Assembly: GCA_016283155.1 (NCBI GenBank)
Contig: JAEEMI010000019.1
Location: 64,093 to 128,092 of the forward strand
Length of the DNA stretch: 64,000 nucleotides
Source: Clostridia bacterium
GTDB taxonomy: Bacteria; Bacillota; Clostridia; Christensenellales; UBA1242
Reading direction: 5' to 3'
Position 1 is the stretch's first letter, and each line of letters begins with the position of its first letter. A model generated the notes under the pieces. That model was not told the DNA's origin. It did not search any database and saw only the letters and a program-made list of their open reading frames with translations. The translations under genes and the position numbers were made by a program. Below are positions 4,599-56,224 of the stretch, in pieces.

Positions 4599-4631
4599 TT
4601 GTTTTGCTACCATAAACGCGGGGGATTTATT

Positions 4632-9190: not shown

Positions 9191-10519
9191 ATGAATCAAG
9201 AAACAACTGAAATTTATTTACGTGTTAAAGATGGCCCAAAACCATTAAAATTGGTTGATATAAATCAATTAAGCTTTAATAAGCCAACTGTTTGCTGTAT
9301 TTCGGGGAATGGGGCAGTAACACCTGAATCTGCTTATGGTTTTGCAAGAATGGCTGAAACATATTTAGAATTATTATTTAGAACAAAAGATGGTTGTAAC
9401 GTTTTAGATAACGTTGATGTGATGACAATTAAATATGCTAAACCAGAAGGAATAGTTACAGGTGGCTACATTAGTGATTCGTTTTCTGAACAATTCGCCA
9501 ATGCATTGTTAAAATTGTTAACTGATGCCAATGGTAATAAGTTAAATCTTGAAACAGCAAAAAAGAATATGTCAAAAATTACTTTTTTTACTTATTGTGC
9601 TGGTGATATTAATTTACAAAATATTTTAAGTAGATTTTTAGATAAAAAATTATTAAACATTGGCTACAGTGAAGAGGAAATAGTTACTATTTATAATGCA
9701 AGTTTTAACGTATCATATGCATCGGTAAGTAGTTGTCAAAATAAAATTCCAAGTGTTAAAGCAGTTAGTTTAAATGATTCGTTAATTGGACAAGACGTAT
9801 ATAATTATTTATTAGAGGATGTCTGGGATGATTCTCGACGCGATGCTATATATCACAGTATTGATGGAATTTTTTTACATAAAGATCAGGCTGGAACTTT
9901 ATATGGGCATTTGAGTAAAAGTGCGACAGCTGAAAGTATTCAAATTTTAAGTAGTGGTTTAAATAATGCTTATCCTGAGAAAGTTTGTGATCATAATATT
10001 GCTTATCTTGCTCGTAATAAGAAAAATTGGAAACTTAGAACTTGTGTTATTAATGGTGATAAATATTATTCAAACAATGCTGATTGTGTATCTGAATTAT
10101 TAGCTTGGGCACTTTGCAGAGGAGTAGAAGGAAGTGTTAATAATTTCAAAGCTCAAGAATATATTCCAAATCATTATTGGAAAGATTTAACTTCTGAGTT
10201 TAAATCAATTATTCATAGTTATGATCAAGAAAAATTAGCCAGAAATCCAGTGTATGAAGAAAAACTTTGCAAGAAATTTTTTGGAAACTTAAAAAAAAAG
10301 TATCAAAAGTTTTACCATATACCTAGTTATCAAAAAATGCTTGATACTATCAATAATGCAAATTCATTAGAAGCAATTATTGATTATATTAAAGGAAAAT
10401 ACTTCGCAGGAATTGAATATGTTTTACCTGCTGCTCAAGTTTTAACAAACAACGAAAAAACAAAAATTTTAAAGGCTGGTAAGGATAAACTTTTAGATGA
10501 AATTAAACTTGAAAAGTAA
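9191..10519 (+). CDS. hypothetical protein (442 aa), possible alpha/beta-hydrolase-like fold with Cys at the elbow
   Basis: Long ORF with an AAGGA SD. CCISGNG and FFTYCAGD resemble oxyanion-hole and nucleophile-elbow patterns, but only weakly. No secure family assignment. Confidence 0.6.
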   Translation: MNQETTEIYLRVKDGPKPLKLVDINQLSFNKPTVCCISGNGAVTPESAYGFARMAETYLELLFRTKDGCNVLDNVDVMTIKYAKPEGIVTGGYISDSFSEQFANALLKLLTDANGNKLNLETAKKNMSKITFFTYCAGDINLQNILSRFLDKKLLNIGYSEEEIVTIYNASFNVSYASVSSCQNKIPSVKAVSLNDSLIGQDVYNYLLEDVWDDSRRDAIYHSIDGIFLHKDQAGTLYGHLSKSATAESIQILSSGLNNAYPEKVCDHNIAYLARNKKNWKLRTCVINGDKYYSNNADCVSELLAWALCRGVEGSVNNFKAQEYIPNHYWKDLTSEFKSIIHSYDQEKLARNPVYEEKLCKKFFGNLKKKYQKFYHIPSYQKMLDTINNANSLEAIIDYIKGKYFAGIEYVLPAAQVLTNNEKTKILKAGKDKLLDEIKLEK

Positions 10520-17247: not shown

Positions 17248-18129
17248 ATGGATTATTTTGATAAACAAGAAATTACTAGGATGCTTGCAAGTCTTAAAAA
17301 TGAATCGGTAACGAAATGTATTATATCTTTAGCCAATCAAGAAAGATCAATCAGTGCCTTTTCACGTGGATTAAGGGCTTTATTATCTGCACGAAATCCA
17401 TTTGATTTAACTAGTGTCGAATCAGCTTTTCAATTAGCGATTGACGAAATTTCTAATCTCAAAAACACTGGTTACAAAAGTTGGACGGCAGAAAAAACCG
17501 GTTTATATTTGTTCGCTTTACAATATATTATATTGCATTTAAATGAAATTGAATTACCATATCAGAAACAAAATACCTATAAACCTAAATTAGTTACATC
17601 AATTAATGAAATTGACCAAAAATGTCGTGATTTAGGAGTCTCTCCGAAAATTATGCACGAACAATGTTATAGCACTGAGTATAAATTTCCGGAAGTCGCC
17701 ATTTTAAGTAATTTTGAATTGTTTGAAGTTAATCGTGCCAATGACTTTAAAATTCGTTTAGAGAAATATAAAACAACCCATAAAAAAGAAGACCTTTATG
17801 AGGTTGGTACTTATCATAAATTATCTAAACAAAACTTAAACGTACAACAAACGCAAACTGAATTAACCCAAAATCAATATCAAAATTTAATGGAAGGATT
17901 GATTCGTCATATGAAACGTGTTTTTCTCTTTGCAGATTTTGATTTAAAAACTTATAACGAAAATTACATTAAAGTGAATAACGAAATCCGTAAATTATGG
18001 AAAATGAGTGGAAAAGATATTAAAGCAGCTAATAATGCAATTAAATCGTTCCATAAATATTTGATTGAAAAAGAGAACAATCCAATTGTTGCATACGAAT
18101 CAGGAAAAAACTCAGGTAAAATTCAATAA
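17248..18129 (+). CDS. hypothetical protein (293 aa)
   Basis: Long ORF with no recognisable motif. Arg-codon usage is mixed (AGG/AGA and CGN). Confidence 0.55.
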   Translation: MDYFDKQEITRMLASLKNESVTKCIISLANQERSISAFSRGLRALLSARNPFDLTSVESAFQLAIDEISNLKNTGYKSWTAEKTGLYLFALQYIILHLNEIELPYQKQNTYKPKLVTSINEIDQKCRDLGVSPKIMHEQCYSTEYKFPEVAILSNFELFEVNRANDFKIRLEKYKTTHKKEDLYEVGTYHKLSKQNLNVQQTQTELTQNQYQNLMEGLIRHMKRVFLFADFDLKTYNENYIKVNNEIRKLWKMSGKDIKAANNAIKSFHKYLIEKENNPIVAYESGKNSGKIQ

Positions 18130-18179: not shown

Positions 18180-18881
18180 ATGTTAAAGATTAATCATTTA
18201 AGTAAAACTTACGCTGATGGCAAGGTTGGTGTTAAGGATTTAAACTTGTCAGTTGATGCAGGAGACATCTGCGCTTTTATTGGACCAAACGGTTCAGGTA
18301 AGACTACAACGATTCGTTGTGTAGTAGGAACATTAAACTTTGAAGAAGGTGAAATTTTAATTGATAACCATTCTGTTAAAGCTGACCCAATGGCTTGCAA
18401 ACGTATCACTGCTTACATTCCTGACAATCCGGATGTTTATACAACCTTAACTGGTAACGAATATTTGAATTTTGTGGCATCAGTTTATCGTATTTCAGTC
18501 GAAGAGCGTGATAAAGCAATCAAATATTATGCTGAACAATGGGGGTTAACTAATGATTTAGGTTTACCAATCAAATCATATTCTCACGGAATGCGCCAAA
18601 AATTAGTTTTAATTGCGGCTTTTATGCGTAAACCCAAATTATTGGTCTTAGACGAACCATTTGTTGGACTCGATCCACAAGCATCATTTACTTTGAAAAC
18701 TATTATGCAAGAGTTTGTAAAAAATGGTGGTGCAATTTTCTATTCTACTCACGTTTTGGATGTTGCTGAAAAACTTTGTAATAAAGTTGTAATGATTAAA
18801 AACGGAACAATTATTAAACAAGGTACGATGAAAGATATTAAAGCTGATAAGAGTTTGGAAGAGGTATTCTTGAATGCGTAA
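18180..18881 (+). CDS. ABC transporter ATP-binding protein (ABC-2 type)
   Basis: Walker A GPNGSGKTT, signature-like YSHGMRQKL, Walker B LLVLDEPFVGLD, H-loop STH. Confidence 0.9.
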   Translation: MLKINHLSKTYADGKVGVKDLNLSVDAGDICAFIGPNGSGKTTTIRCVVGTLNFEEGEILIDNHSVKADPMACKRITAYIPDNPDVYTTLTGNEYLNFVASVYRISVEERDKAIKYYAEQWGLTNDLGLPIKSYSHGMRQKLVLIAAFMRKPKLLVLDEPFVGLDPQASFTLKTIMQEFVKNGGAIFYSTHVLDVAEKLCNKVVMIKNGTIIKQGTMKDIKADKSLEEVFLNA

Positions 18882-20400
18882 CATAGGAATCTTGTTCAAA
18901 AATTACATTCTTTGTGGAATTGGTAATTTACGCCGTAAAAAAGCAAGAGCAAAAACAATTGTTGGTTTTTGCCTTATCACATTAATATTTGTGGCTAACG
19001 CAGCATTATTTACTTGGATGATGCTTAATATGGCCAAATATTTGGCAGAAACCAATACCCAAGCCGGTGTTTTAGTTTATGGTTTAGTGATTTCGCTGTT
19101 TATGTCGATTATTTTTGCTTTACAAAAAATTACCGGTGGTAAAAAAGCAAACGACACAGAATTACTGTTAAGTATGCCATTCACAAAGGTTGAAATTATG
19201 ATAGCCAAAGCGTTATCACGTCTTTGCTTTAATTTCTTAATAGTAATTATGTTCTTTTTGCCAAGCGTCATTGCTTATATGGTATACACACCATTCAGTA
19301 TTGCAGCCTTTGCTGGTTGTATTACGGTAATGATATTAATCCCATTAATGGCAGTAGGACTTTCGTCATTGGTTGATTATTTAGTTACAGTTTGTTTTTC
19401 TAATTCTAAATTTGGGAACATTTCCAAAGCTGTTATGACATTAATCATTTTAGTTGGCGTAGTCTTCGTTTATGAATTTGCTATTATAGATCCTGCTTCA
19501 CCTTTAATGTTAAAAATGGTGTCTTGGATGATTACTTTTAATCCTTTTGTTATGTGGCCGTTAATTGGTGGTTTTGTCGCATTTTTCGTAATTGGTAACT
19601 GGTTAAACGCATTGTTATTAAACAGGGAAGGACGCGCAACACAATATAAGTCAGTTGCAATTAGTTCAAAAACAACAACACCATTTAAATCAATTTTAAA
19701 AAATGAAACTAACCGCTATTTTAATTCACCAACAATGATGTTAAATACTTTAATTGGTCCATTAGGTATGATAGCGCTAACCATTTGGTTAGCGGTTGAT
19801 CACGCACAGACAGTACTAACAATGGTTTGCTTTGCAATGGGATTACCAGTTGAAATTGGATATCTAATTATTGCTTTGGTTTTTGCTGCTTTAACAATAT
19901 TAACTTATCCAGCGGCATTTTCAATTTCATTAGAAGGCAAACAATTATGGATTTTACGTAGTATGCCAATACCAGCTCACACAATTTTAAACGCAAAAAT
20001 TTTATTCAACATTATTTTGGTTGCTCCTATATCATTAATTTGTAGCGTAATTTTACAAATTACATTGCAATTATCTGCATTTAATTTCATTATGTTACTT
20101 GTAATTCCAATTTTGGCTAACGTTCTAATATCTTATATGGGAGTTTTTATTAATTTATGTTTTCCAAAACTTGAATTTGAAAGCGAAAATGCTGTGATTA
20201 AACAAAGTATGAGTTCGTTGATTATGATGTTAGGTGGTATGATTGTTATCATGGCATTAATCGGTTTAACAATTCTTTTAATTCAATATATTTCTGCCAT
20301 CTTTATCGCAATCATTATTATTGGAATTTTGACAATAATGCTCGGCGTTGCAATGACATTAAATTATACTATTGGACAACGCATTTTTAATCGTTTGTAA
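18874..20400 (+). CDS. polytopic membrane protein, putative ABC-2 permease partner
   Basis: 8-nt overlap with the ATPase gene. More than 10 hydrophobic segments in 508 aa. Confidence 0.7.
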   Translation: MRNIGILFKNYILCGIGNLRRKKARAKTIVGFCLITLIFVANAALFTWMMLNMAKYLAETNTQAGVLVYGLVISLFMSIIFALQKITGGKKANDTELLLSMPFTKVEIMIAKALSRLCFNFLIVIMFFLPSVIAYMVYTPFSIAAFAGCITVMILIPLMAVGLSSLVDYLVTVCFSNSKFGNISKAVMTLIILVGVVFVYEFAIIDPASPLMLKMVSWMITFNPFVMWPLIGGFVAFFVIGNWLNALLLNREGRATQYKSVAISSKTTTPFKSILKNETNRYFNSPTMMLNTLIGPLGMIALTIWLAVDHAQTVLTMVCFAMGLPVEIGYLIIALVFAALTILTYPAAFSISLEGKQLWILRSMPIPAHTILNAKILFNIILVAPISLICSVILQITLQLSAFNFIMLLVIPILANVLISYMGVFINLCFPKLEFESENAVIKQSMSSLIMMLGGMIVIMALIGLTILLIQYISAIFIAIIIIGILTIMLGVAMTLNYTIGQRIFNRL

Positions 20401-20920: not shown

Positions 20921-20957
20921 TGTCAACTTTTACTATATAAAGTCATATTGATTGGTT

Positions 20958-21584
20958 ATGGAAAATACAATACAAAATTGGGAACAAATGACATATCCAT
21001 TTACTAATTTAACATTAAATTATAATTTAAATGCTTTAGAACCTTATATTGACACTAGAACGATGCACGAACATTATGATTTGTTAGCAGATTATATTAA
21101 AAACCTTAATCAGATTATAGCAACACGCATTGATTTGCAAAATATGAATTTAATTGATTTGTTAAATTACGCGGTTAACAATCAAGATATTGATTTACAT
21201 CGTCAAGCGGGCGGTGTATATAATCACTTTTTCTTTTTCAGTGAATTAAGACCTGCAACTGGACAAATCATTATCGGTATTACACCACAAGCAACAAATA
21301 AGATTATAGCAGCATTCGGTGGCTGGAAAAATTTTAAAGAAAAATTTGCTGAAGTATCTTTAAATTTTTTTGGTTCAGGTTACACTTGGTTAATCAAAAA
21401 CAACAAGAATGAATTAAAAATAATTACAACAACAAACCAGGAGGTACCACTAGGCTGTACACCAATTTTATGTTTAGATATTTGGGAACACGCTTATTAT
21501 TTGCAACATTTAAAAAAGCGCCATACTTATATTGACGCTTTTTGGAATATCGTTGACTGGGTTAAGTTCAGCGAGAAACTTTAA
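20958..21584 (+). CDS. Fe/Mn superoxide dismutase
   Basis: LNALEPYIDTRTMHEH, GGVYNHFFF and DIWEHAYYL. The four metal ligands (His, His, Asp, His) are retained. The ATG at 20958 is preferred over the TTG at 20952. Confidence 0.85.
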   Translation: MENTIQNWEQMTYPFTNLTLNYNLNALEPYIDTRTMHEHYDLLADYIKNLNQIIATRIDLQNMNLIDLLNYAVNNQDIDLHRQAGGVYNHFFFFSELRPATGQIIIGITPQATNKIIAAFGGWKNFKEKFAEVSLNFFGSGYTWLIKNNKNELKIITTTNQEVPLGCTPILCLDIWEHAYYLQHLKKRHTYIDAFWNIVDWVKFSEKL

Positions 21585-31000: not shown

Positions 31001-31789
31001 TTATTTAGTTTTTGAAGCGGTTTGACCATTTGGTTTAATCGCTTTTTTAGTTTCATTTTTCTTTGCAGTTTCAGAAGCAAAAATTTTGTCAAAATGATCT
31101 AACATTTTTTGATCAGCAGCAGCAATATGATTACCTTGACAATTCTTAGTTAATCCACCAGCCATTTTAACTAAATACATTCCCGGTAAATAATCCCATT
31201 TACTATCGGCACGCAAATAATATCCCTTAAGACGTCCTGCCGCCACCCAAGCATAAACTACCGCAGCAGAGTTAATTTCACGGAAATTACGATAATTAAC
31301 CAAATCACGTTCGTGTATGGTTATTGCCGGTAAATTATTTCCAGTTATTGCAAAAATTTGGTTTTTGTCTTGATTATTCGGCACAATTTCCAAACGTTCA
31401 CCATTCAAGAATGCACCATCGCAATCCGCATAATACAATTCGTCCAATTTAGGTAAATAAATTACACTACAAACGACTTCACCATTCTCTACTGCAGCAA
31501 TTTGCAACCCCCACAATGGAATACCCGCAGCAAAATTTATTGTGCCATCGATTGGATCAATTACAAAACAATTTGAAGTTAATGGCTTATCCGGATTAAA
31601 TTCTTCGCTAATAATTTCATAGTCAGGATATTTATGAATTAATTTATCAATTAAAAAGTTTTCAACTTCGTGATCACAATCGGTGACTAAATCACCATAG
31701 TTATCTTTGTTATAAATTTTAAATGATTTTTCGGTTATTTTTGCGGCTTGTTGGATGATTCCGCAAAGATATTTTGTAATCTTTTGCAT
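31001..31789 (-). CDS. inositol monophosphatase/SuhB-family phosphatase (paralog 1) with Lys-rich C-terminal tail
   Basis: ISEEF, VIDPIDGTINFAAGIPLWG and WDYLPG motifs. Confidence 0.85.
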   Translation of the reverse strand: MQKITKYLCGIIQQAAKITEKSFKIYNKDNYGDLVTDCDHEVENFLIDKLIHKYPDYEIISEEFNPDKPLTSNCFVIDPIDGTINFAAGIPLWGLQIAAVENGEVVCSVIYLPKLDELYYADCDGAFLNGERLEIVPNNQDKNQIFAITGNNLPAITIHERDLVNYRNFREINSAAVVYAWVAAGRLKGYYLRADSKWDYLPGMYLVKMAGGLTKNCQGNHIAAADQKMLDHFDKIFASETAKKNETKKAIKPNGQTASKTK

Positions 31790-32916
31790 ATGACGTTATT
31801 ATAACAATTCTCAACTAACGTGTCAAAATCTAATTTTTTTTCTTCTTCTAAGACTGTATTAAGATTAGGTTTTATTGTTGGATGAGTTGGTACAAATACA
31901 GTACAACAGTCTTCATATGGTAAAATACTAATTTGATATGTTCCGATTTGTTTAGCGACATCAATAATTTCGTTTTTATCAAAACAAATCAATGGTCTTA
32001 AAATCGGTAGTCGTTTGGCTACAAAATTATTACTTGTTATACCTTGAATAGTTTGACTAGCAACTTGTGCTAAATTTTCACCTGTAAAAATACAATCTGC
32101 ACCATTTGCAACGCCAATTTTTTCAGCTAGCGCAACCATAAAACGGCGCATTAATGTAATTGTATATTGGTCGTGGCATTTCTTTTGAATTTGTGAACCA
32201 ATTTCAGTAAATGGCACGACGTATAAATTACCGGTATTACCGTAAGAATTTACTTTCTCACACAAGGAAACAACTTTTTGTAAGGCTAATTCACTGGTAT
32301 ATGGTGGCGTTGAGAAATGCACAAAATCAACTACCAATCCACGTTTCATCGCCAAGAAAGCGGCTACAGGACTATCAATACCACCCGAAATTAAACAAAC
32401 AGCACGACCAGAAACACCAACAGGTAGACCTCCTAAACCACGTTCACAACCAGTTGAAATAAATGCTATTCCATTTTGACGAATTTCAATTTGGACTATT
32501 GTTTCTGGATTTTGCACGTCAACTTTAGCTGATGAATTATGCTTTAATATAACGTCGCCACATTGTGGTGCAAAAATCGGACTTTTAACTGGGAAATTTT
32601 TATCAGCACGATTTACGACAACTTTAAAAGTTCCACTGACTTTAACTGTCGTTAAATAATTCAATATATCTGTTGGTGTTGTATAATTAATTGAATCACA
32701 AACACGAATATGTGTTAATCCGAACACTTTTTTTAATGCGGCAACAACTGGTTGAGATTCCGTAAAATTTGTAACTAAAATCCTTGTATCTTTAACTTCT
32801 GCCCTTACATTTTGAGGTAATGAGCGACGAATGTTTTGCATCAATGTACGCAAAAAGAAACCACGGTTAGCGCCCTTCAAATGAATTTCGCCATAACTAC
32901 AAACAATAATACTCAT
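31735..32916 (-). CDS. thiI: tRNA 4-thiouridine synthase ThiI
   Basis: THUMP-like N-terminus and PP-loop LISGGIDSPVA. The 3' end overlaps the IMPase start by 55 nt. Confidence 0.88.
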   Translation of the reverse strand: MSIIVCSYGEIHLKGANRGFFLRTLMQNIRRSLPQNVRAEVKDTRILVTNFTESQPVVAALKKVFGLTHIRVCDSINYTTPTDILNYLTTVKVSGTFKVVVNRADKNFPVKSPIFAPQCGDVILKHNSSAKVDVQNPETIVQIEIRQNGIAFISTGCERGLGGLPVGVSGRAVCLISGGIDSPVAAFLAMKRGLVVDFVHFSTPPYTSELALQKVVSLCEKVNSYGNTGNLYVVPFTEIGSQIQKKCHDQYTITLMRRFMVALAEKIGVANGADCIFTGENLAQVASQTIQGITSNNFVAKRLPILRPLICFDKNEIIDVAKQIGTYQISILPYEDCCTVFVPTHPTIKPNLNTVLEEEKKLDFDTLVENCYNNVICKRLQNIFAESSNKPQK

Positions 32917-34156: not shown

Positions 34157-34513
34157 ATGGAAGTAAAACGCGGCGAGATCTATTTCGCTAACCTTGGTGA
34201 CAGTACTTGTAACTTAAATAGTGAACAAGAAGGTTTTCGTCCCGTTTTAATCTTACAAAATAATATTGGTAATAAATATAGTCCCACTGTTATTGTGGCT
34301 TGTTTAACATCAAAAATATATAAGAACAGAATTCCAACTCACGTATTTATTAGTGCTGAAGATTATAATTTAAACTGTGATAGTCTGATTTTATGTGAAC
34401 AAATTAAAACCATTGACAAAGTTCGGCTGAAACATAAATTGACAACAATTAATTCTACCGACCAACAAAGAATTGACCGTGCCTTAAAATTAAGTTTGGG
34501 ACTTACCAATTAA
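34157..34513 (+). CDS. mazF: MazF/PemK/EndoA-family endoribonuclease toxin (solitary)
   Basis: Collinear with Bacillus EndoA/NdoA: VKRGEIYFANL, SEQEGFRPVLILQNNIGNKYSPTVIVACLTS, IPTHVFI, DSLILCEQIKTIDKVRL. Confidence 0.88.
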   Translation: MEVKRGEIYFANLGDSTCNLNSEQEGFRPVLILQNNIGNKYSPTVIVACLTSKIYKNRIPTHVFISAEDYNLNCDSLILCEQIKTIDKVRLKHKLTTINSTDQQRIDRALKLSLGLTN

Positions 34514-37121: not shown

Positions 37122-38888
37122 TTATTTTTTAATTACAGCTTTAATACGGCGAATACCAGCGCTACTGCTTTCTTCTTTAACAATTTTAAAGTTAACTAGT
37201 TCAGCTGTGTTCTTTGCGTGTGGACCACCACAAATTTCTTTTGATACATCACCAATTGTGTAAACCTTGACCATTTCACCATATTTATTAGCGAACGAAC
37301 CTTCGGCGCCTATGGCTTGTGCTTCTTTCAAAGACATTTCTTCCATTGTAACAGGAATCTTACGTTGAATAGCATCGTTAACAAATTTTTCTAAGAATGC
37401 AATTTCTTCTGGGGTCAATTTATGGTCACAATTAAAATCAAAGCGCAAACGCTCGGGTGTAATGTTACTACCTTTTTGGGTAGTATCTTTACCTAACAAT
37501 TTTTTCAAACCAGCCAATAATAAGTGGGTTGCCGTATGCAAATGTGCTGTTTCATCGCTGGTATCTGCTAAACCACCTTTAAACATACCTGCCGAAGCGG
37601 TATGACTTAATTCACTGTGTTTATTTTTAGCAGTTTCAAATTCCTCCATATTAATGGTTAAACCGTTTTCAGAAGCTAATTCTTGTGTTAATTCGATTGG
37701 AAAACCATATGTTTCATACAAGCGGAAAGCTGTCTTACCCGAAAGTTGTTTATCTTTCAAGAAAGGTAAAATTTTATTAAATTCACGTATACCCTGTTCT
37801 AAGGTTTTTGAAAATTTATCTACTTCGTCTAAATAATTCTTGGTTACATTTTCGTCAATTTGATAAATACCTTTAAAGAAATCACGATAAAACTGAATCA
37901 GTTTACCATAGACATCACGCGAACATCCTAATTGATTGGCCATACGTACTGCACGACGAATCAAACGACGTAAAACATAACCTTGTCCATTTGGGGAAGG
38001 CAAAACTCCATCACTTAAAATCATAGTTGCAGTTCGAGTATGTTCAACCAAAACACGGAAAGGTTTTAAATTTTCTGCATATGCCAAGCCACAATCGTCC
38101 ACAACAATTTTAATGGCTGGTGCGAAGGCTTCACTTTCATAAACATTTTTATAACCATTAATAAAACACAATAAACGTTCTAATCCCATACCTGTATCAA
38201 CATTACGTTGTTGAGCTGTCACTGCTTTACCACCTTTTTCGTGGATAACGTATTGCATATAAACATCATTACCAATTTCAATATATTTGCCACAACTGCA
38301 ACTTGGATTACATTCTGGCGAACAAGGTGCTTTACCCGTATCGTAGAACATTTCGCTGTCTGGGCCACACGGACCAGTACCAGTTGCTAATTGCCACCAG
38401 TTTTCACTCTTCGGTAAGAACCAAATGCGATTTGCGGGAATACCAACTTCCTGCCAATATTGCGCAACTTCGGTATCGCGTGGTGCCACTTCATCACCTT
38501 CAAAAGCAGTTACAGCAATGCGATCTTTTTCCAAACCTAAATATTTTGGATTAGTTAAAAAATCATACGACCAAGCCACTTTTTCTTTTTTGAAATAATC
38601 ACCTAGCGACCAATTTCCCATCATTTCAAAAAATGTTAAATGACTCTCATCACCGACTTCATCAATATCGCCAGTACGTACGCATTTTTGGATATCACAA
38701 ATACGTTTACCAGATGGATGTGTTTCTCCCAGTAAGAATGGAACTAAGGGTTGCATTCCAGCCGTTGTAAATAAAACACTGCCATCATTTTCAGGCACCA
38801 AAGATGCTGACGGAATCACACAGTGTTGGTGTGCTTGATAAAAATCAAACCACATCTGACGTAAATCGTGATAACTAATTTTCCTCAT
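37122..38888 (-). CDS. alaS: alanyl-tRNA synthetase, short form lacking the C-Ala domain
   Basis: FTTAGMQPLVPF and GMGLERL (class II motifs). Editing-site HTATHLLL and CGGPHAKNT. The protein ends at GIRRIKAVIKK (588 aa). Confidence 0.9.
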   Translation of the reverse strand: MRKISYHDLRQMWFDFYQAHQHCVIPSASLVPENDGSVLFTTAGMQPLVPFLLGETHPSGKRICDIQKCVRTGDIDEVGDESHLTFFEMMGNWSLGDYFKKEKVAWSYDFLTNPKYLGLEKDRIAVTAFEGDEVAPRDTEVAQYWQEVGIPANRIWFLPKSENWWQLATGTGPCGPDSEMFYDTGKAPCSPECNPSCSCGKYIEIGNDVYMQYVIHEKGGKAVTAQQRNVDTGMGLERLLCFINGYKNVYESEAFAPAIKIVVDDCGLAYAENLKPFRVLVEHTRTATMILSDGVLPSPNGQGYVLRRLIRRAVRMANQLGCSRDVYGKLIQFYRDFFKGIYQIDENVTKNYLDEVDKFSKTLEQGIREFNKILPFLKDKQLSGKTAFRLYETYGFPIELTQELASENGLTINMEEFETAKNKHSELSHTASAGMFKGGLADTSDETAHLHTATHLLLAGLKKLLGKDTTQKGSNITPERLRFDFNCDHKLTPEEIAFLEKFVNDAIQRKIPVTMEEMSLKEAQAIGAEGSFANKYGEMVKVYTIGDVSKEICGGPHAKNTAELVNFKIVKEESSSAGIRRIKAVIKK

Positions 38889-38902: not shown

Positions 38903-40099
38903 TCACAAATCGCCAATTGTGTCTTCATATTTTAATTCTTTTTCTTCCATAAATCCATCCAATCCTGCTTGTTTCAACATATCCATAAAGATACTTGAAT
39001 TTGTGCTTGAAATATTTTCGGTATTATTTGCTTGAGCTTCAAGTTCTTCATTACTAGGAATCTGCAAATTTAATTTACGAGCAATTTCTTCTACTAACGA
39101 TTTTGGTGCTACATCTGTTTCTTCTGCCACTGATTCTTGTATTTCTTCTGACTTTTCTTTGTGAGTATCTTCAGATTCAAACTTATTTTCTGTTACGGGT
39201 TCAACTTCTGTTTTAGATTCAGATTCATTCATAATTTCAGGTTGAGACTCTGTTTGTTTTGGTTTCGGATTTAATGATGTAGTATTAGAACGTTCAGGGA
39301 TTGAACGACGCGGTAACACTGGAGGAATAACGCCATCTATCATTGTTGTATGTTCTTGATTTACAACTTCCTGGTTATCAGTTTTAAGTTCTGTTATAGA
39401 TGTTTGTGTGTTTTCAGTTTTATTTGTTAAAGAATTACTTGATTCATTCTTCACTTTGCCATAAGTTGATTGACTAAACTCAAAATTATAAGGTGAATAT
39501 AATTTAAAAGTTTGTGAAACAAATTTATTCTTACAGTCAAAAATATTATTATTAATAATAGCGGTATTAATACCCAATGCAATAATTTTTTCAAATAAAT
39601 CAGCCAAATCGCAAGGATAACACCACAAGAAAATAGTATCGATTTTATTTTTATTATTTAAAGCACATTCATATGCATCAATTAACAAACGAGAATCTAA
39701 ACAGTTTACATTAGGTTGTTTAAATTTCATTTTGCCAACCGTGATAACATTATATTCATTTGCAATATCACGAATACCAGGTAAGGTAGTATCACTAAAA
39801 CCATATAATTTACAAATTTCTATTTTGTACTTTCCATTAGCATAAAATAAAATTTCTAATAAATTTTCACGACTAATGCCAGCGTTATCAACATCAATAA
39901 ACATTGCTATACGCGGCTTAGAGGCGACAATTTTGCTGACTGGTTTAGCATTGGTTGATTTTGATGTTGTTTTTTTTGTGGAGATTGTCTTTTTTGCTAC
40001 AGCCAAAACTTTCGGTGAAGCCGATTTTGTTTTTGCAGATTGCGAACTTGATGAAGTTCGTTTATATCCTTCGTAAACTTTTTTTTCAGTATCCCCCAC
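38903..40099 (-). CDS. NYN (LabA/DUF88, PIN-like) domain protein with basic N-terminal and long acidic disordered C-terminal regions
   Basis: IAMFIDVDNAG...LDSRLLIDAY...IFLWCYPCDLADL pattern of NYN domains, flanked by low-complexity tails. Confidence 0.6.
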   Translation of the reverse strand: MGDTEKKVYEGYKRTSSSSQSAKTKSASPKVLAVAKKTISTKKTTSKSTNAKPVSKIVASKPRIAMFIDVDNAGISRENLLEILFYANGKYKIEICKLYGFSDTTLPGIRDIANEYNVITVGKMKFKQPNVNCLDSRLLIDAYECALNNKNKIDTIFLWCYPCDLADLFEKIIALGINTAIINNNIFDCKNKFVSQTFKLYSPYNFEFSQSTYGKVKNESSNSLTNKTENTQTSITELKTDNQEVVNQEHTTMIDGVIPPVLPRRSIPERSNTTSLNPKPKQTESQPEIMNESESKTEVEPVTENKFESEDTHKEKSEEIQESVAEETDVAPKSLVEEIARKLNLQIPSNEELEAQANNTENISSTNSSIFMDMLKQAGLDGFMEEKELKYEDTIGDL

Positions 40100-40134: not shown

Positions 40135-41073
40135 TTATTTTATACCAAGTACTGCGGCAGCGGCAATCATTGCTGCATTGTCACCACATAATGTTGGAGT
40201 TGGTAAATATAATTTTACACCTAATTCTTCGCAAAGAATTTTAAATTGTTCACGCAGATATTGATTAGCCGATACGCCACCACAGACGCCTAAAGTTTTG
40301 ATTTGAGTTTGTTCTAAAAATTCCCTAACCTTTATTAATAATTGATTAATCGCACAATATTGAAAATTTGCGCAAATCTCTGGTAAATTAATTAGATTAT
40401 TTTTTTGTTTTTCGTGATTAATATAGTTTAAAACCGCAGTTTTTAATCCAGAATATGAAAATGTATTCTTCGGGAATTTATTTAAAATTGGTATAAATGA
40501 TAAATTCATATTAGCATTTTGAGAAATTTTTGGACCACCCGGATAAGCTAAACCCAAAACACGAGCAACTTTATCAAAAGCCTCACCAATCGCATCATCT
40601 GCAGTTGTACACAACATTTGAGTTTCCCATTGTTCATTAACTTTAAATAATATTGTATGACCACCTGAGACCAACAAACATAACATCGGTGGTCGTAAAT
40701 CTGGATTTGATAGACGTAAACTAGCCATATGACCATTTAAATGATTTACTGGAATGAATGGAACATTCAATGCGTTAGCTAAACTTTTACCAAAAACACG
40801 TCCCACCATTACTGCACCAGGCAAACCTGGTTGAGTTGTAGCGGCAACTTGATCAATCTGTGATAATGTTAAATTGGCTTTGTGTAGAGCCTCATCTAAA
40901 ACTGGTAAAATATTTTCAATATGATTTCTGGCTGCAATTTCAGGAACAACACCACCATATACTTGATGAATTTCGATTTGCGAAATAATAACATTTGATA
41001 AAATTTTAAATTGGTCATCAATAACTGCAACACTTGTTTCGTCACAGGAAGTTTCAACACCCAAAGTTAGCAT
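40135..41073 (-). CDS. tsaD: tRNA N6-adenosine threonylcarbamoyltransferase TsaD
   Basis: LGVETSCDETSVAV, VNHLNGH, LLVSGGHT and GGVSAN motifs. Confidence 0.92.
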   Translation of the reverse strand: MLTLGVETSCDETSVAVIDDQFKILSNVIISQIEIHQVYGGVVPEIAARNHIENILPVLDEALHKANLTLSQIDQVAATTQPGLPGAVMVGRVFGKSLANALNVPFIPVNHLNGHMASLRLSNPDLRPPMLCLLVSGGHTILFKVNEQWETQMLCTTADDAIGEAFDKVARVLGLAYPGGPKISQNANMNLSFIPILNKFPKNTFSYSGLKTAVLNYINHEKQKNNLINLPEICANFQYCAINQLLIKVREFLEQTQIKTLGVCGGVSANQYLREQFKILCEELGVKLYLPTPTLCGDNAAMIAAAAVLGIK

Positions 41074-42125
41074 TATTGATTTTCCTCTGCGTTTTGTAAT
41101 AAGAATGCATCAGAGAACATTTTTAAATCACCATCCATAACTTTTTCAACATTAGATGTTTCCGCACCTGTACGATGATCTTTAACCATTGTATATGGGC
41201 AGAAAACATAACTGCGAATTTGACTGCCCCATTCGATTTTCATTTGAACTGGTTGTAAATTTTTTAATTTGCGTCGTTCATTTTCAAAATGAATGTATTC
41301 CAATTTTGATAATAGATTTTGCATACAAGTTTGACGGTTTTGAATTTGGCTACGTCCATTTTGACAAGTACAAACAATTCCCGTCGGAATGTGTGTAATG
41401 CGTACCGCACTTTCAGTCTTATTAATATGTTGACCGCCCGCACCAGATGCGCGGTAAACATCAATTCTTAAATCTTTTTCGTCAACTTTATATTCAGTCT
41501 TTTCAATTTGTGGGATAACCTCAACCGCTACAAAGCTGGTATGACGACGCTTATTTGCATCAAATGGACTAATACGAACCAATCGGTGCACACCTGCTTC
41601 ACTCTTAAAAATACCATAAGCATTAACACCGTTAACGGCAATTGATGCTCCTTTAACACCTGCACCATCACCTTCTTCAACATCGGTAATTTCATATTCA
41701 AAATTTTGTTGTTCGGCAAAACGACACATCATACGCATTACCATTTCTGCCCAGTCTTGTGCTTCAGTACCACCAGCACCAGCCGTAATGTTTAACACGC
41801 AATTACATCCATCATATTTACCAACCAGTAAAGTTTTAACATAGAAATCGTCAAACTGTTTTTTTACACGAGCATATTCATCAACCAATTCAGTTTCAGA
41901 ACACACAACTGTTAATTCTAAAAAATCATCAATATCGTTACTAACGGTATCAAATTCATTGACAAACTCTTGTAGTGATTTAATTCGTTTATTCTGTTCA
42001 ATATTATTCCAATCTTGTTCTTGTTTTTTTAGCAAATCATCTAGTTCCTGTTTCTTGGCAGTAACTAAATCATTAATTGCATTAAGTTTTAATTTTGCTT
42101 TTTGAATTATACTGTAATCTAACAT
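41073..42125 (-). CDS. prfB: peptide chain release factor 2, uninterrupted ORF
   Basis: SPF tripeptide (RISPFD) and GGQ (SGAGGQHINKTESAVR). There is no in-frame TGA or frameshift site near codon 25. Confidence 0.92.
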   Translation of the reverse strand: MLDYSIIQKAKLKLNAINDLVTAKKQELDDLLKKQEQDWNNIEQNKRIKSLQEFVNEFDTVSNDIDDFLELTVVCSETELVDEYARVKKQFDDFYVKTLLVGKYDGCNCVLNITAGAGGTEAQDWAEMVMRMMCRFAEQQNFEYEITDVEEGDGAGVKGASIAVNGVNAYGIFKSEAGVHRLVRISPFDANKRRHTSFVAVEVIPQIEKTEYKVDEKDLRIDVYRASGAGGQHINKTESAVRITHIPTGIVCTCQNGRSQIQNRQTCMQNLLSKLEYIHFENERRKLKNLQPVQMKIEWGSQIRSYVFCPYTMVKDHRTGAETSNVEKVMDGDLKMFSDAFLLQNAEENQ

Positions 42126-42131
42126 CGCCTA

Positions 42132-42518
42132 TCACTTCTTTATATTTAATTTTGCTATTTTTTTATGATAATCTTCAACCGCGTCAGCAATCACCGCCTG
42201 TGCCAAATCTGCTATATATAATTTATTTTCTGGTAATCCCTTTAACATTTTTATAATGTCATTGCTATTAATCGTTAACGCATCTGTCAGAGAGCAATCT
42301 CTTAACAAATCACAAACAACATCACTGGCAGCTAAAGTATAAACACCGCCCAAGGATTTAAATTTTGCTTCAACAATATTATTATTAGCAATTCTTAAAT
42401 AAATTTTAATTAAATCTCCTGAACCAATACTGCCAACTTGTCCAACAGCATCAGCATTGGTAATAATGCCAGCATTTTGTAAATTTTGAAAACGTTCAAT
42501 AATTACTGGACTATACAT
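42132..42518 (-). CDS. IscU/NifU-like protein lacking all three cluster-ligating cysteines
   Basis: Collinear with IscU (YSPVIIERFQNLQNAG, AKFKSLGG, ADAVEDYHKK), but GSGD replaces CGD, LGGV replaces GCG, and LYIADLAQ replaces HCSxLAE. Confidence 0.75.
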   Translation of the reverse strand: MYSPVIIERFQNLQNAGIITNADAVGQVGSIGSGDLIKIYLRIANNNIVEAKFKSLGGVYTLAASDVVCDLLRDCSLTDALTINSNDIIKMLKGLPENKLYIADLAQAVIADAVEDYHKKIAKLNIKK

Positions 42519-43698
42519 TTTCTGACACCTCCGTCTTTATATTAATCGGACTTAACGCACGTAACTTCTTTACAACATTAACCAAACACGCTACCGTATA
42601 ATCCAAATCTTCTTTTGTAGTTGCACGTCCTAAAGTAAAACGTACCGCCCCGTTAATATAATCATCATTAACTCCAATTGCTTGTAATACATAGCTACGG
42701 CTTAACATTTCACTGGTACTAGCTGTTCCTGTTGAAGCACAAATTCCCATAGTATCAAGCATTGCTGTAATGCTCTCACCTGAGATTCCTTGGAATGAAA
42801 AATTAACATTATTATTTAAACGTTGTGTACGGTGCCCATTTAATTTTACACCAGGAATTTTGGCTTCAATTTCCTTAATCAAATAATCGCGTAACTGTTT
42901 CATACGTGTATTATTAGTGTTACCATCACGCATACAAATTTCAACGGCTTTTCCTAAACCTACAATTGCTGGTAAATTATAAGTACCTGCACGCATTCCA
43001 TTTTCTTGATAACCACCGTGAATAAATGTTTCAATTGGTGTTCCACGTTTTAAATATAAAACACCAACACCTTTTGGACCATATATTTTATGTCCAGATA
43101 ATGATAAAGCCGTAATCTGCATTTCTTTAACATTAATGTGGACACTTTCTAAAGCCTGGGTTGCATCCGTGTGAAAATACACATTATTTTTGCTGCAAAT
43201 ATTAGCAATTGTATTAATGTATTGTACTGTACCAACTTCATGATTAGCCGTCATTACGGACACTAGACAAGTCGGTTTGGATAATTTAGCCAATAAATCA
43301 GGAATTGAAATAATTCCATTTTCATCGACTTTAATATAATCGACTTCAACACCATTTTCAGTTAACCATCGTGCTGTTTCAGTTATACTTGGATGTTCAA
43401 TCGCACTAACTAAAACACGTTTAATTGGAGATGCCGCGACTATACCTTTTAAAACCCAATTATTAGCTTCTGTTGCACCTGAAGTAAAATAAATTTCGTC
43501 AGGATCAGCATTAATAATTTTAGCCACACTTGCACGAGCGTTTTCGATAGCCTCACGTGCTGTATAACCAATCTGATGTAATGAATTTGGGTTACCATAA
43601 TTGGTAATAAAGTACGGTTGCATCGCATAAAAGACTTCGCCATTACAATATGTTGTAGCCGCATTATCCAAATAAACTTCCCTATCTATTGCCATCAC
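42511..43698 (-). CDS. NifS/IscS-like class V PLP enzyme with Ser at the persulfide Cys position
   Basis: YLDNAATT, ANHEVG and SLSGHKIYGPKGVG (PLP Lys204). The active-site loop reads GICASTGTASTSEMLSRSYVL where SSGSACTSGSLEPSHVL is expected. Ser327 is the AGT codon at 42718-42720. Confidence 0.8.
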   Translation of the reverse strand: MMAIDREVYLDNAATTYCNGEVFYAMQPYFITNYGNPNSLHQIGYTAREAIENARASVAKIINADPDEIYFTSGATEANNWVLKGIVAASPIKRVLVSAIEHPSITETARWLTENGVEVDYIKVDENGIISIPDLLAKLSKPTCLVSVMTANHEVGTVQYINTIANICSKNNVYFHTDATQALESVHINVKEMQITALSLSGHKIYGPKGVGVLYLKRGTPIETFIHGGYQENGMRAGTYNLPAIVGLGKAVEICMRDGNTNNTRMKQLRDYLIKEIEAKIPGVKLNGHRTQRLNNNVNFSFQGISGESITAMLDTMGICASTGTASTSEMLSRSYVLQAIGVNDDYINGAVRFTLGRATTKEDLDYTVACLVNVVKKLRALSPINIKTEVSENV

Positions 43699-43704
43699 TA
43701 TAGT

Positions 43705-44382
43705 TTACTCCTTCCTAAACAACAAAATCAAGTAATTTAGACACTTTAAGTGTTTTCTTAACATTTGATAATCTGGGATTACATTACCAACAACATTCCA
43801 AAATGCAGTCGTATGATTAAACTCTAACAAATGACATAATTCGTGAACAACAATATAATCAAGCAAGTTTGGCGGTAAAAAAATAGCACGCCAATTAATT
43901 GCAATATTACCGTGACTATCACAAACACCCCAACGTGTTTTGTTATTATTTGTTGTTACCGCATTAGGACGTAAACGTAGTTTTTGTGCCATATAATAAA
44001 CTCTTTCAACCAAAATCTCAGCAGCTACTTTACGGTACCATTTATCTATCTTACTTAAAATTTTATCACTGGAAATTTTTGCAGGAATTAATAATTTATT
44101 ATCACTAATCATTATTTCTTTTACATCGTTTGAAATCAGCGGTGTTAATTCTTTACCTAAAAATAAAAAGATTGTGTAATTAACAACATTAGGATTAATA
44201 TACGAATTATTGCGAATTGCATTTTGTTTTTTTATAATCCAAGCTTCTTTCTCCTTAACAAAAGCAAAAATTTTATTTTCGGGATAATGATAAGGCGCAC
44301 GAACAATCAATTCGCCTTTTGCATTAACCATCAACGATAAAGTACGTTTATTTGTACGAATAATATTACGTGGATCAAGCAT
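43705..44382 (-). CDS. YgjP/DUF45 (SprT-like, M48-related) zinc metallohydrolase
   Basis: WGVCDSHGNIAINWRAIFLPPNLLDYIVVHELCHLLEFNHTTAFW (HExxH...H). Confidence 0.8.
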   Translation of the reverse strand: MLDPRNIIRTNKRTLSLMVNAKGELIVRAPYHYPENKIFAFVKEKEAWIIKKQNAIRNNSYINPNVVNYTIFLFLGKELTPLISNDVKEIMISDNKLLIPAKISSDKILSKIDKWYRKVAAEILVERVYYMAQKLRLRPNAVTTNNNKTRWGVCDSHGNIAINWRAIFLPPNLLDYIVVHELCHLLEFNHTTAFWNVVGNVIPDYQMLRKHLKCLNYLILLFRKE

Positions 44383-44449
44383 CTCGAAAAATGATACCGC
44401 AACCCAGTTTAACTTGACAAGGAGATAATTTCGACATTAAAATTATATT

Positions 44450-54294: not shown

Positions 54295-55347
54295 TTACTG
54301 CAAAAACATACAATCGCCAAACGAATAGAATCGAAAACTATTTTGCTTTGCCATTTCATAAAGTTCCAGAACTTTTTCTCGACCAATAAATGCCGAAACC
54401 AACATTAGCAAAGTTGATTTAGGTAAATGAAAATTTGTGATTAATGCAGAAATAACTTTAAATTGATATGGTGGATAAATAAAAATATCAGTAGTATCTA
54501 TAACGGCTTTAATTACCCCATATTTAGCAAAACACCCCTCTAAAGTACGTAAACTGGTAGTACCGGTTGCGATAATTCTACGACCATCACGTAAAGCATC
54601 ATTAATGATTCGAGCTGTTGATTCTGAAATCTGATATCGTTCAGTATGCATTACGTGTTTAGTAATATCATCAACCTTAACTGGACGAAAAGTACCTAAA
54701 CCAACGTCTAATACAACCGGCGCAAAAATAACTCCTTTAGCACGTGCTTCCGCCATTAAGGTTTTAGTCCAATGTAAACCTGCGGTTGGAGCGGCTGCAC
54801 TGCCATCAACTTTAGCATAAACTGTATTATAATTTTCTTTGGTAGCGTTACCATTTTGAATATAATGAGGCAATGGAATTTCACCAACTTCGTCAATTAC
54901 CGCTTCTAAATTTTGTGATCCTTCGGAACAACTTAATTGCATTATAGCTGTACCTGCATCAGTGTTTTTATTGATTAATGTTGCTTGTAAGCGTCCAGAA
55001 ATATCCACCACATCACCAGGTTTTAAACGGCGCAAAGGTTTTACTAAAACTTCGTAATGATTTAAATCAATTTTTTTTAACAATAAAATTTCAATCACTG
55101 CTCCAGTTGACTTTTTTCCCATTAAACGCGCAGGAATAACACGTGTTTCATTAATTACCACAACATCCCCACTTCGTAAAAAAGACAAAATATCCTTAAA
55201 TTGATTGATTTGTGTTTGTTTAGTTTGACGATTGTAAACCAACATCTTACAAGCATCACGCGGTTCAATTGGTGCCGATGCAATCATACTATCGGGTAAT
55301 TCATAATCATAATCAGATAAAAATTCCACATAAATTATATACAACAA
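54295..55347 (-). CDS. queA: S-adenosylmethionine:tRNA ribosyltransferase-isomerase QueA
   Basis: DYDYELPDSMIASAPIEPRD, VINETRVIPARL, APTAGLHWT and FYSFGDCMFL. An alternative start is the GTG at 55329. Confidence 0.92.
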   Translation of the reverse strand: MLYIIYVEFLSDYDYELPDSMIASAPIEPRDACKMLVYNRQTKQTQINQFKDILSFLRSGDVVVINETRVIPARLMGKKSTGAVIEILLLKKIDLNHYEVLVKPLRRLKPGDVVDISGRLQATLINKNTDAGTAIMQLSCSEGSQNLEAVIDEVGEIPLPHYIQNGNATKENYNTVYAKVDGSAAAPTAGLHWTKTLMAEARAKGVIFAPVVLDVGLGTFRPVKVDDITKHVMHTERYQISESTARIINDALRDGRRIIATGTTSLRTLEGCFAKYGVIKAVIDTTDIFIYPPYQFKVISALITNFHLPKSTLLMLVSAFIGREKVLELYEMAKQNSFRFYSFGDCMFLQ

Positions 55348-56224
55348 AACTTACTCCATAAGCAAGCAACAAATTAGTAAAAAACACTTTAATACCAGTT
55401 TTGTGTCCACAATGACAATTAATTGCTGTTTGCGCTGCAATACACTTTGGATACAATGCAAAGAAAGTTATTAATGACAATACCATTGGAACAGATAAAA
55501 TGTTTATGACATTAGGGAAAAATAACAAAACTGAAACAGCTGCTTCTTTGGCAATGATACCAAACAATAATGCGCATATAATTACTGGATGGTTCAAACC
55601 GACTGACACAAAGATTGGTGAGAAAAGACCACAGATTGAAAATAAGATTGATTGTTGAGAATCATTAACAAATTTGAAATTAAATGAAAATCGTGCTAAA
55701 ACAACGATTATAAAAGCGCTTATTATAAAAGCAATAATAATTTTCTTTGCAAAAATTAACGTTTGCCTTAAAGTATCTAGCAAACATTTACCAAGATTGG
55801 GAAAAGTTAATTGAATGTTTGTATCATAATTAATTTTTTCTACATTGTTTTTAGGCACAAACATTATCACTAAAATAGCAATAATTATACAAAACAAATA
55901 TACAACAAAAATGGACCCAAAAGGTAAACCAAGTACAGTTAATAACAAAAAAATTAGCATTGGTAACTGTGCCGTACAAGGAATTAACGATAAAAAATAC
56001 ACCAAACGCTTACGTTGCGGATTATCACGCGCTGAACATACAGCCATTGTTGTACAATTAAAAGTTAAACAAATTGGTAAAACATTATTGATTGGTAAAT
56101 GAAAAATACGAGCAATCTTTGCCAAAAGTCCACTCTTCTCTAATATCGATAAAATTAGATACAAAAGGAAAACTTGCGGAATAAATTCAACCAATGTACA
56201 TAAAATTTCCCAAATTGATGGCAC
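55313..56224 (-). CDS. FeoB-like membrane (Gate/nucleoside-recognition) domain protein without G-domain
   Basis: ILEKSGLLAKIARIF and LTFNCTTMAVCSARDNPQRKRLVYFLSLIPCTAQLP match the FeoB permease core (LEDSGYMAR..., GFGCNVPA...R...CSARLP). There is no GTPase domain. Confidence 0.6.
   Translation of the reverse strand: MPSIWEILCTLVEFIPQVFLLYLILSILEKSGLLAKIARIFHLPINNVLPICLTFNCTTMAVCSARDNPQRKRLVYFLSLIPCTAQLPMLIFLLLTVLGLPFGSIFVVYLFCIIIAILVIMFVPKNNVEKINYDTNIQLTFPNLGKCLLDTLRQTLIFAKKIIIAFIISAFIIVVLARFSFNFKFVNDSQQSILFSICGLFSPIFVSVGLNHPVIICALLFGIIAKEAAVSVLLFFPNVINILSVPMVLSLITFFALYPKCIAAQTAINCHCGHKTGIKVFFTNLLLAYGVSFVVYNLCGIFI

Follow-up and report, generated by a model that had tools for sequence, protein, structure and literature searches.

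Few machines in biology are as highly conserved as the IscS/NifS–IscU pair, whose defining feature is its cysteines. We describe here a nifS-like and an iscU-like gene whose products lack these cysteines, in a 64,000-nucleotide stretch of the genome of a Clostridia bacterium (assembly GCA_016283155.1, contig JAEEMI010000019.1, positions 64,093 to 128,092; the whole stretch is referred to as the window). The nifS-like gene (window positions 42511..43698, minus strand) encodes a class V pyridoxal phosphate (PLP) protein of 395 residues, and the iscU-like gene (42132..42518, minus strand) encodes a NifU_N protein of 128 residues without the cysteine ligands of a cluster; the stop of the nifS-like gene and the start of the iscU-like gene overlap by 8 nt (ATGTATAG). 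Both assignments come from Pfam, NCBIfam, alignment to Protein Data Bank (PDB) structures, and AlphaFold2 (AF2) models searched with Foldseek. The closest described system is the clostridial/archaeal-type NifS–IscU pair (TIGR03402/TIGR03419), a group I cysteine desulfurase with a single-domain NifU_N scaffold, which corresponds to the 'MIS' of Garcia et al., as reviewed in PMC13066941. Fold, gene order, and locus are the same in the window and in canonical relatives (L086, L088). The window pair differs in carrying serine in place of the persulfide cysteine, in the replacement of every scaffold cysteine together with the ligand histidine, and in a cluster site that drifts.

Other described systems resemble this pair in part. 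The IscS–IscU complex of Archaeoglobus fulgidus (PDB 4EB5, 4HVK) contains a naturally 'crippled' IscS that is still complexed with IscU. It is the nearest defective precedent in nature, and its IscU ranks first among the structural and sequence matches of the window IscU-like protein. The archaeal defect is the opposite one, since its IscS lacks the PLP lysine and keeps the loop cysteine, whereas the window protein keeps the lysine and has lost the cysteines; likewise, A. fulgidus IscU retains all its ligands and binds [2Fe-2S], whereas the window IscU-like protein has no ligand cysteine. Cys-to-Ala forms of E. coli IscS, CsdA, and SufS reportedly lose cysteine desulfuration and retain selenocysteine lyase and cysteine sulfinate desulfinase activity, a result attributed to Mihara et al. 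in 2000. Those are laboratory mutants, whereas the window protein is natural, conserved, and accompanied by a cysteine-less IscU partner. SufU, an IscU-fold protein, has given up the scaffold role and become the obligate partner or activator of its desulfurase, but it has a zinc site of three cysteines and an aspartate and accepts persulfide, and the window IscU-like protein has no cysteine there. Synechocystis C-DES, a NifS-like PLP cyst(e)ine C–S lyase without an active-site cysteine, illustrates that a class V PLP protein lacking a conserved cysteine can be an active enzyme with different chemistry (PMC8300815). C-DES belongs to a distant, separate branch, is reported to be a monomer, and has no IscU partner, whereas the window protein is orthologous to group I NifS/IscS and its cysteine was lost recently. 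C-DES and SufU are thus functional analogies to the window pair, not relatives. Full-text literature searches returned no description of a conserved cysteine-less IscS/IscU pair, and a 2026 review of iron–sulfur (Fe–S) biogenesis makes no mention of one; the families are known by fold and descent, and the recurrent, staged, selected loss of cysteine in the NifS/IscU pair appears undescribed.

The NifS-like protein retains the overall architecture of a desulfurase. It matches Pfam Aminotran_5 over residues 8–367 (E = 3e-76), and its best NCBIfam model is TIGR03402 (NifS), at 468 bits against a cutoff of 530.75, below which the canonical relative L088 also falls (483 bits). Identity is 42–43% to solved NFS1 and 38–40% to solved IscS. 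The AF2 model has a predicted local distance difference test (pLDDT) score of 87, dropping below 50 only in the loop 327–331 and at the C terminus, and aligns to NFS1/IscS with a Foldseek template modelling (TM) score of 0.92. The PLP Schiff-base lysine of the SLSGHK motif is Lys204 (codon AAA, 43087..43089, minus strand), which is invariant across the 120 closest NifS-like homologues; an earlier note on this DNA, made from the sequence alone, was therefore right that the PLP-lysine motif and the class V fold are kept. The remainder of the PLP and substrate site (H102, D178, Q181, S201, H203, and R353) is likewise retained and invariant in relatives, so that the lysine in S-x-H-K and the equivalents of E. 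coli His104, Asp180, Gln183, and Arg354 are all present, and Asn152 is invariant within the window's own clade. At E <= 1e-30 there are 29 PDB matches, most of them group I desulfurases; selenocysteine lyases and DndA/SspA proteins appear among the weaker ones, and none is by name a cystine or C–S lyase. The NifS tree places the window protein inside clostridial NifS.

The catalytic loop departs from this conservation. HMMER alignments to solved NFS1/IscS structures set Ser327 opposite the catalytic cysteine (STGTASTSE against SSGSACTS), at the position of the persulfide-forming Cys328 of E. coli IscS, and the codon is AGT (42718..42720, minus strand), in agreement with the earlier reading. 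This column is cysteine in 69 of 69 more distant relatives. An alignment of cysteine-less and canonical relatives contains no other conserved cysteine in the mobile loop. Cys320, in the 'GIC' that had been raised as a possible substitute, was rejected as a displaced nucleophile: it occurs in 13% of cysteine-less relatives and also in canonical ones that keep the catalytic cysteine. Compensation by a new cysteine elsewhere was likewise discarded, the conserved candidates Cys18, Cys144, Cys168, and Cys255 being present in canonical members (L086, P0050, P0052) and thus older than the loss. We also note that Cys18, Cys144, and Cys255, together with Cys69 of the IscU-like protein (42312–42314), form a lineage-specific set that varies little or not at all within the clade, whether the member is canonical or degenerate, and that is seldom found in relatives farther away. 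The change from SHVL to SYVL after the loop, previously counted as a notable His-to-Tyr substitution, proved to be ordinary, since SYVL is found in human NFS1 and in many canonical relatives. As judged from its sequence, the NifS-like protein cannot form an enzyme persulfide.

The IscU-like protein has likewise kept its fold and lost its ligands. It matches Pfam NifU_N at 3.6e-27, shares ~33% identity with solved IscU, and yields an AF2 model (pLDDT 92) with Foldseek TM scores of 0.84–0.88 to IscU 7C8M, 4EB5_C, and 3LVL_A. Its NCBIfam scores are far below cutoff, at 94 bits for TIGR03419 (NifU_clost; cutoff 187.9), about half the 177 bits of the canonical relative L088, and 37 bits for TIGR01994 (SufU; cutoff 92.5). 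In HMMER alignments to solved structures, Ser33 (TCA, 42420..42422), Gly58 (GGT, 42345..42347), and Tyr101-Ile102 (TAT ATA, 42213..42218), all on the minus strand and confirmed by codon, stand opposite the first and second ligand cysteines and the ligand His-Cys (E. coli IscU Cys37, Cys63, and His105-Cys106, respectively), as the earlier note had proposed. All three ligand cysteines are absent in 37 of 37 close homologues (57–100% identity).

What replaces the ligands is not constant. Of the five positions that once held ligands, four fall at the 81st–95th percentile of column entropy, with S/A/V/T/L, D/E/N/T (the Asp39 equivalent, Asp35 in the window protein), G/N/S/T, and Y/Q/H/K/F/P (the His105 equivalent, tyrosine in the window protein) found across the clade; the fifth, the former third cysteine, is I/L/V, with about median entropy. 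Non-cysteine replacement ligands were considered and rejected, because the five positions are not kept as a ligand set and four are highly variable; with these columns drifting, there is no replacement cluster site, and the protein is predicted to be incapable of ligating a cluster. Conservation lies elsewhere, at Y2, F10, G34, K54, and K99 (G34, K54, and K99 invariant or nearly so) and, in the NifS-like protein, in the C-terminal LRxxSP helix and the GE308 region. We take the five IscU-like residues to match those of E. coli IscU that contact IscS (PDB 3LVL), and infer that the two window proteins would still form a complex.

The loss can be followed as a series at one locus. Nine loci, with 67–100% NifS identity, share the order padR (divergent), ygjP-like, nifS-like, iscU-like, prfB, tsaD, NYN, alaS, uvrD, pemK, lgt, and thiI; by their source labels the relatives are uncultured gut and rumen Clostridia, and the more distant ones are Christensenellaceae. 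A scan of genome contigs gave a single close genome among the matches listed, L006 (Clostridia bacterium RGIG7181), and a scan of metagenome contigs gave, among the matches listed, distant canonical NifS alone. L088 and L086 are fully canonical (NifS loop GSAC; C, C, and HC at the first, second, and His-third cysteine positions of IscU), and because their pair occupies the same locus, the window pair is orthologous to it. The same positions read S, G, and HS in L087 (NifS loop GSAS) and S, G, and YC in L171, which keeps the third ligand cysteine and has a NifS loop, GSVHHH, with a two-residue deletion. In L169 the scaffold reads A, G, and QI while the enzyme keeps its cysteine (GTAC). L172 (GTAS; S, G, HI), the window (GTAS; S, G, YI), and L170 (STTSY; L, G, HV) lack both, and L006 (GAASC; T, G, YM) has a cysteine shifted by one position. 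Among the 120 closest NifS-like proteins, GSAC is found in every one below ~70% identity, and the closer ones mix serine, cysteine, shifted cysteine, and histidine.

We placed these states on a housekeeping tree of 10 genes and 3189 columns (all trees are neighbour-joining, with few taxa). The window, L169, L172, L170, and L006 form a clade, here clade A, with 100% support, within which the cysteine-bearing L169 groups with the serine-bearing L172 (98%) and the window (94%). As L169 is nested among serine-bearing lineages, clade A has seen either three or more losses of the NifS cysteine or a single loss and one reversal, and this cysteine was further replaced separately in L087 (serine) and in L171 (histidine, with the two-residue deletion). 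L086, L087, L171, and clade A form a polytomy (bootstrap ~40%), and the housekeeping tree disagrees with the NifS tree, in which canonical L086-type sequences are nested among degenerate ones; the number of scaffold cysteine losses therefore lies between one and three. The order of events is clear: the ligand cysteines of the scaffold were lost first, and the cysteine of the enzyme later and repeatedly.

Both genes nevertheless bear the marks of constraint. Synonymous divergence (dS) exceeds 1.2, that is, it is saturated, in all pairs compared, and the lineages are thus old. Nonsynonymous divergence (dN) of the NifS-like protein among cysteine-less lineages is 0.04–0.20, matching tsaD (0.09–0.23) and ygjP. 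The ratio dN/dS (omega), which is approximate because dS is saturated, is about 0.03–0.1 for the NifS-like protein overall; in the closest pair (L169/L172) it is 0.03 for the NifS-like and 0.06 for the IscU-like protein, and 0.02–0.04 for prfB, tsaD, and ygjP. Once the ligands are lost, the dN of the IscU-like protein relative to tsaD is ~three times as high (0.28/0.13, for example, compared with 0.18/0.28 for the canonical L086/L088), and despite this faster evolution it stays well below dS. In 69 canonical relatives, 127 NifS sites reach a conservation of 95% or more; clade A retains 115 of these at 90% or more, and the exceptions cluster at the loop 323–329, with R45Y in addition. By these sequence measures both genes are under purifying selection and are not dying pseudogenes, and what selection would appear to preserve in the window's clade is the fold, the capacity to bind PLP and an amino acid, and probably the heterocomplex.

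Similar pairs occur beyond this locus. We ran a profile of the cysteine-less IscU-like proteins against 1.84 billion representative proteins and classed the best 150 matches (P0158–P0307): 83 have three ligand cysteines (81 the full C-D-C-H-C) and 67 have fewer, including 27 with none, proportions that give no estimate of prevalence since the profile favours cysteine-less matches. The degenerate matches are 28–43% identical to the window IscU-like protein, as distant as the canonical ones. Some matches are fusion proteins of 200–580 residues (for example, P0185, P0198, P0248, and P0270). Four degenerate iscU-like genes could be placed in context, all in other low-GC uncultured Clostridia and in other synteny (dprA, topA, trmFO, hslVU, thioredoxin, nifS, iscU). 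Three adjoin a canonical NifS gene, in L173 and L174 (no ligand cysteine in the IscU-like protein) and in L176 (third cysteine only). In the fourth, L175 (6815-8381), the IscU-like protein is again without ligand cysteines and the adjacent NifS-like protein has lost its cysteine (GSSFGA), the PLP lysine (SAHT), and the Gln181 equivalent; the organism is very common, and its NifS-like protein is found on >100 contigs.

A sample of 120 relatives of the L175 NifS-like protein (P0358–P0477, 70–100% identity) shows a hypervariable catalytic loop, with GSAC in ~30 of 121 sequences, the PLP lysine in 114 of 121, and the glutamine of HTDAxQA variable in many members. From these alignments, at least two clades are seen to undergo the same decay while retaining both genes. 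A separate observation concerns L176, in which a ThiF-family gene (E1-like, possibly TcdA-like; L176:5584-6255) lies directly upstream of thioredoxin, nifS, and the iscU-like gene; a link to the CsdA/CsdE/TcdA ct6A pathway may be considered as speculation.

We put a probability of roughly 0.6 on the explanation that the window carries an orthologue of the clostridial NifS/IscU pair that has lost persulfide and cluster chemistry and is kept by selection as a complex of two proteins whose role is now another one, independent of cysteine. The earlier note had suggested a repurposed pair or a pseudo-ISC module, and this gains support from a loss that independent assemblies reproduce and dozens of diverged homologues share, from the canonical pair at this locus in relatives, and from purifying selection on both genes, under which the PLP site stays intact while the cluster site drifts. 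The refuting condition that the note set for itself also fails to overturn it, since neither another loop cysteine nor an alternative set of scaffold ligands is conserved. In this lineage the scaffold lost its ligand cysteines first, after which the loop cysteine of the enzyme became dispensable and was lost repeatedly. The NifS-like dimer would, on its conserved residues, still bind PLP, an amino-acid substrate, and the IscU-like subunit, and it may carry out PLP chemistry for which an enzyme thiol is unnecessary, or may serve as a ligand-binding or structural module. By analogy, candidate reactions are those that remove a good beta-leaving group, such as selenocysteine lyase, cysteine sulfinate desulfinase, or C–S lyase chemistry of the C-DES type. 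A PLP protein with a structural partner and no need for an enzyme thiol is the most economical mechanism.

Sulfur would then have to come from elsewhere. The window contains an apparently intact thiI, for tRNA 4-thiouridine sulfurtransferase (31735..32916, minus strand; TIGR00342, 347 bits against a cutoff of 264.5), with its SGGIDS PP-loop and EDCC motif, 9 kb from the nifS-like gene; since the NifS-like protein cannot offer a persulfide, another sulfur donor is implied. ThiI and any Fe–S proteins might be supplied by another system, such as SUF, or by free sulfide in the gut.

Several points weigh against a cysteine-independent complex. Its new function is deduced solely from conserved features, and the selection argument draws on omega values that saturation renders approximate. 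Complex formation is suggested by conserved residues that are presumably IscS contacts in E. coli (PDB 3LVL). Neither a SUF gene, a second desulfurase, nor a recognisable Fe–S protein was detected in the 64-kb window by cysteine-motif regular expressions and Pfam. Finally, the L175 sublineage has lost the PLP lysine and the Gln181 equivalent as well, so that, in that sublineage at least, selection may be preserving something other than catalysis.

This last point leads to the strongest of the competing explanations, which we still regard as unlikely: that the pair is a non-catalytic pseudoenzyme complex, with PLP at most structural, selected for protein binding or regulation. An L175 protein without lysine, glutamine, or cysteine that is nonetheless so widespread speaks for this, as does the variable HTDAxQA glutamine in its clade, and the best conserved part of the IscU-like protein is the surface assumed to contact IscS. 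The window's own clade argues otherwise, with Lys204, His102, Asp178, Gln181, Arg353, and Asn152 invariant despite saturated dS; a mere binding platform would not obviously need an invariant PLP site, and even in the second clade nearly all members keep the lysine.

Ranked after it, and also improbable in our estimation, is continued service in sulfur or Fe–S trafficking by an unconventional route. Product persulfide might be generated from cystine, as in C-DES, an acceptor thiol (ThiI, MnmA, or thioredoxin) might attack PLP-bound cysteine in trans, or free sulfide might be used, as in methanogens. The intact PLP site and substrate-carboxylate arginine would permit such a route, ThiI lies nearby, thioredoxin adjoins the pair in the second clade, and some clade members have a cysteine on the flexible loop, or one shifted by one position (ASC); C-DES provides the precedent of a NifS-like protein without cysteine (PMC8300815). 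The scaffold tells against it, as a protein with no thiol at any ligand position, and with those positions drifting, would be neither scaffold nor persulfide acceptor. On the enzyme side, the loop residue varies as an unconstrained position would (serine or histidine here; tyrosine, phenylalanine, or threonine in the second clade), the closest relatives are group I desulfurases and not C-DES, and the lineage-specific Cys18, Cys144, and Cys255 predate the loss, being present in canonical members too.

That the genes are relics nearing loss, kept open only through operon or translational coupling to the essential prfB and tsaD downstream, is very unlikely. The tight packing, with an 8-nt overlap and 6-nt gaps, and the accelerated IscU-like protein are in keeping with this reading, but coupling places no constraint on amino-acid sequence, and here dN is far below dS, the NifS-like dN equals that of tsaD, and the great majority of conserved sites are retained. 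Moreover, >100 intact full-length homologues without visible frameshifts are found in two clades, and the second clade retains the pair despite its different synteny. A sequencing, assembly, or genetic-code artefact, already doubted in the earlier note because both partners are affected, can practically be dismissed, as the same DNA recurs at 99.9–100% nucleotide identity in five independent assemblies (two of them, L002 and L003, span the Ser327 codon and are 100% identical), dozens of homologues have the same substitutions, and the intact prfB and uninterrupted standard-code reading frames speak against recoding.

The pair sits in a long co-directional cluster, as the earlier note had held, in which the ygjP-like gene, nifS-like, iscU-like, prfB, tsaD, the NYN gene, and alaS follow one another on the minus strand with gaps of at most 35 nt. 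The ygjP-like metallopeptidase gene at its head (43705..44382; Pfam YgjP-like, 2.7e-52) ends 6 nt upstream of the nifS-like gene and holds the same position in all relatives. A candidate promoter for the operon (TTGTCA-18-TATCAT, 44391..44420, minus strand), identified by consensus match only, lies in the intergenic region between the divergent padR and ygjP genes. Downstream, prfB (release factor 2; 41073..42125; Pfam PCRF and RF-1) begins 6 nt after the iscU-like gene and is one uninterrupted 350-residue reading frame for which a programmed +1 frameshift is not required. It is followed by tsaD (40135..41073; Pfam TsaD, 6.6e-88), which overlaps the prfB stop by 1 nt, and by a gene for an NYN-domain protein between tsaD and alaS (38903..40099), conserved in most related loci, whose product has long low-complexity tails rich in Ser/Thr/Lys/Glu and a length of ~370–460 residues across those loci. 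The alaS gene (37122..38888; NCBIfam NF002436, 782 bits against a cutoff of 529) encodes a 588-residue short form that lacks the C-terminal domain; as it matches the known NF002436 family, it is not unusual.

Elsewhere the window, with a GC content of 31–35%, holds the sporulation genes spoIIGA, sigE, yabP, and yqfD together with housekeeping genes. A PemK/MazF-type toxin gene (34157..34513, plus strand), convergent with uvrD/pcrA and conserved in relatives, has no antitoxin gene called beside it. A gene for an Fe/Mn superoxide dismutase (20952..21584, plus strand) is present although the host looks like an anaerobic, spore-forming member of the gut Clostridia. Between ~20000 and 22000 the GC skew changes sign, and genes turn from the plus to the minus strand near 21 kb, a switch compatible with a replication origin or terminus. 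Reading frames of 230–510 residues without a Pfam match (E <= 1e-5) lie at 3912-5579, 9191-10519, 17248-18129, 18874-20400, and 55313-56224.

Automatic annotation labels these proteins 'cysteine desulfurase' and 'iron-sulfur cluster assembly scaffold protein'. The scaffold annotation is wrong, and the enzyme annotation is probably wrong as well; metabolic reconstructions of metagenome-assembled genomes (MAGs) of abundant gut and rumen organisms consequently overcall Fe–S assembly capacity. A broader and more tentative proposal, in which we have limited confidence and which we think more doubtful than probable, is that IscS/IscU-derived complexes that have abandoned sulfur chemistry for a function unrelated to Fe–S are widespread in uncultured low-GC gut Clostridia, and that their hosts may lack a working type I cysteine desulfurase and use SUF or sulfide for tRNA thiolation and Fe–S assembly. 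At one and the same locus, canonical ancestors of a pair otherwise defined by its cysteines have repeatedly given rise to natural, selected versions without them. These form an evolutionary series that runs from the canonical pair, through a dead scaffold with a live enzyme, to a pair in which both have lost their cysteines, and on to one from which the PLP lysine has gone. The series may be used to learn what else the complex does, and how gut anaerobes feed sulfur to ThiI and Fe–S proteins without a type I desulfurase.

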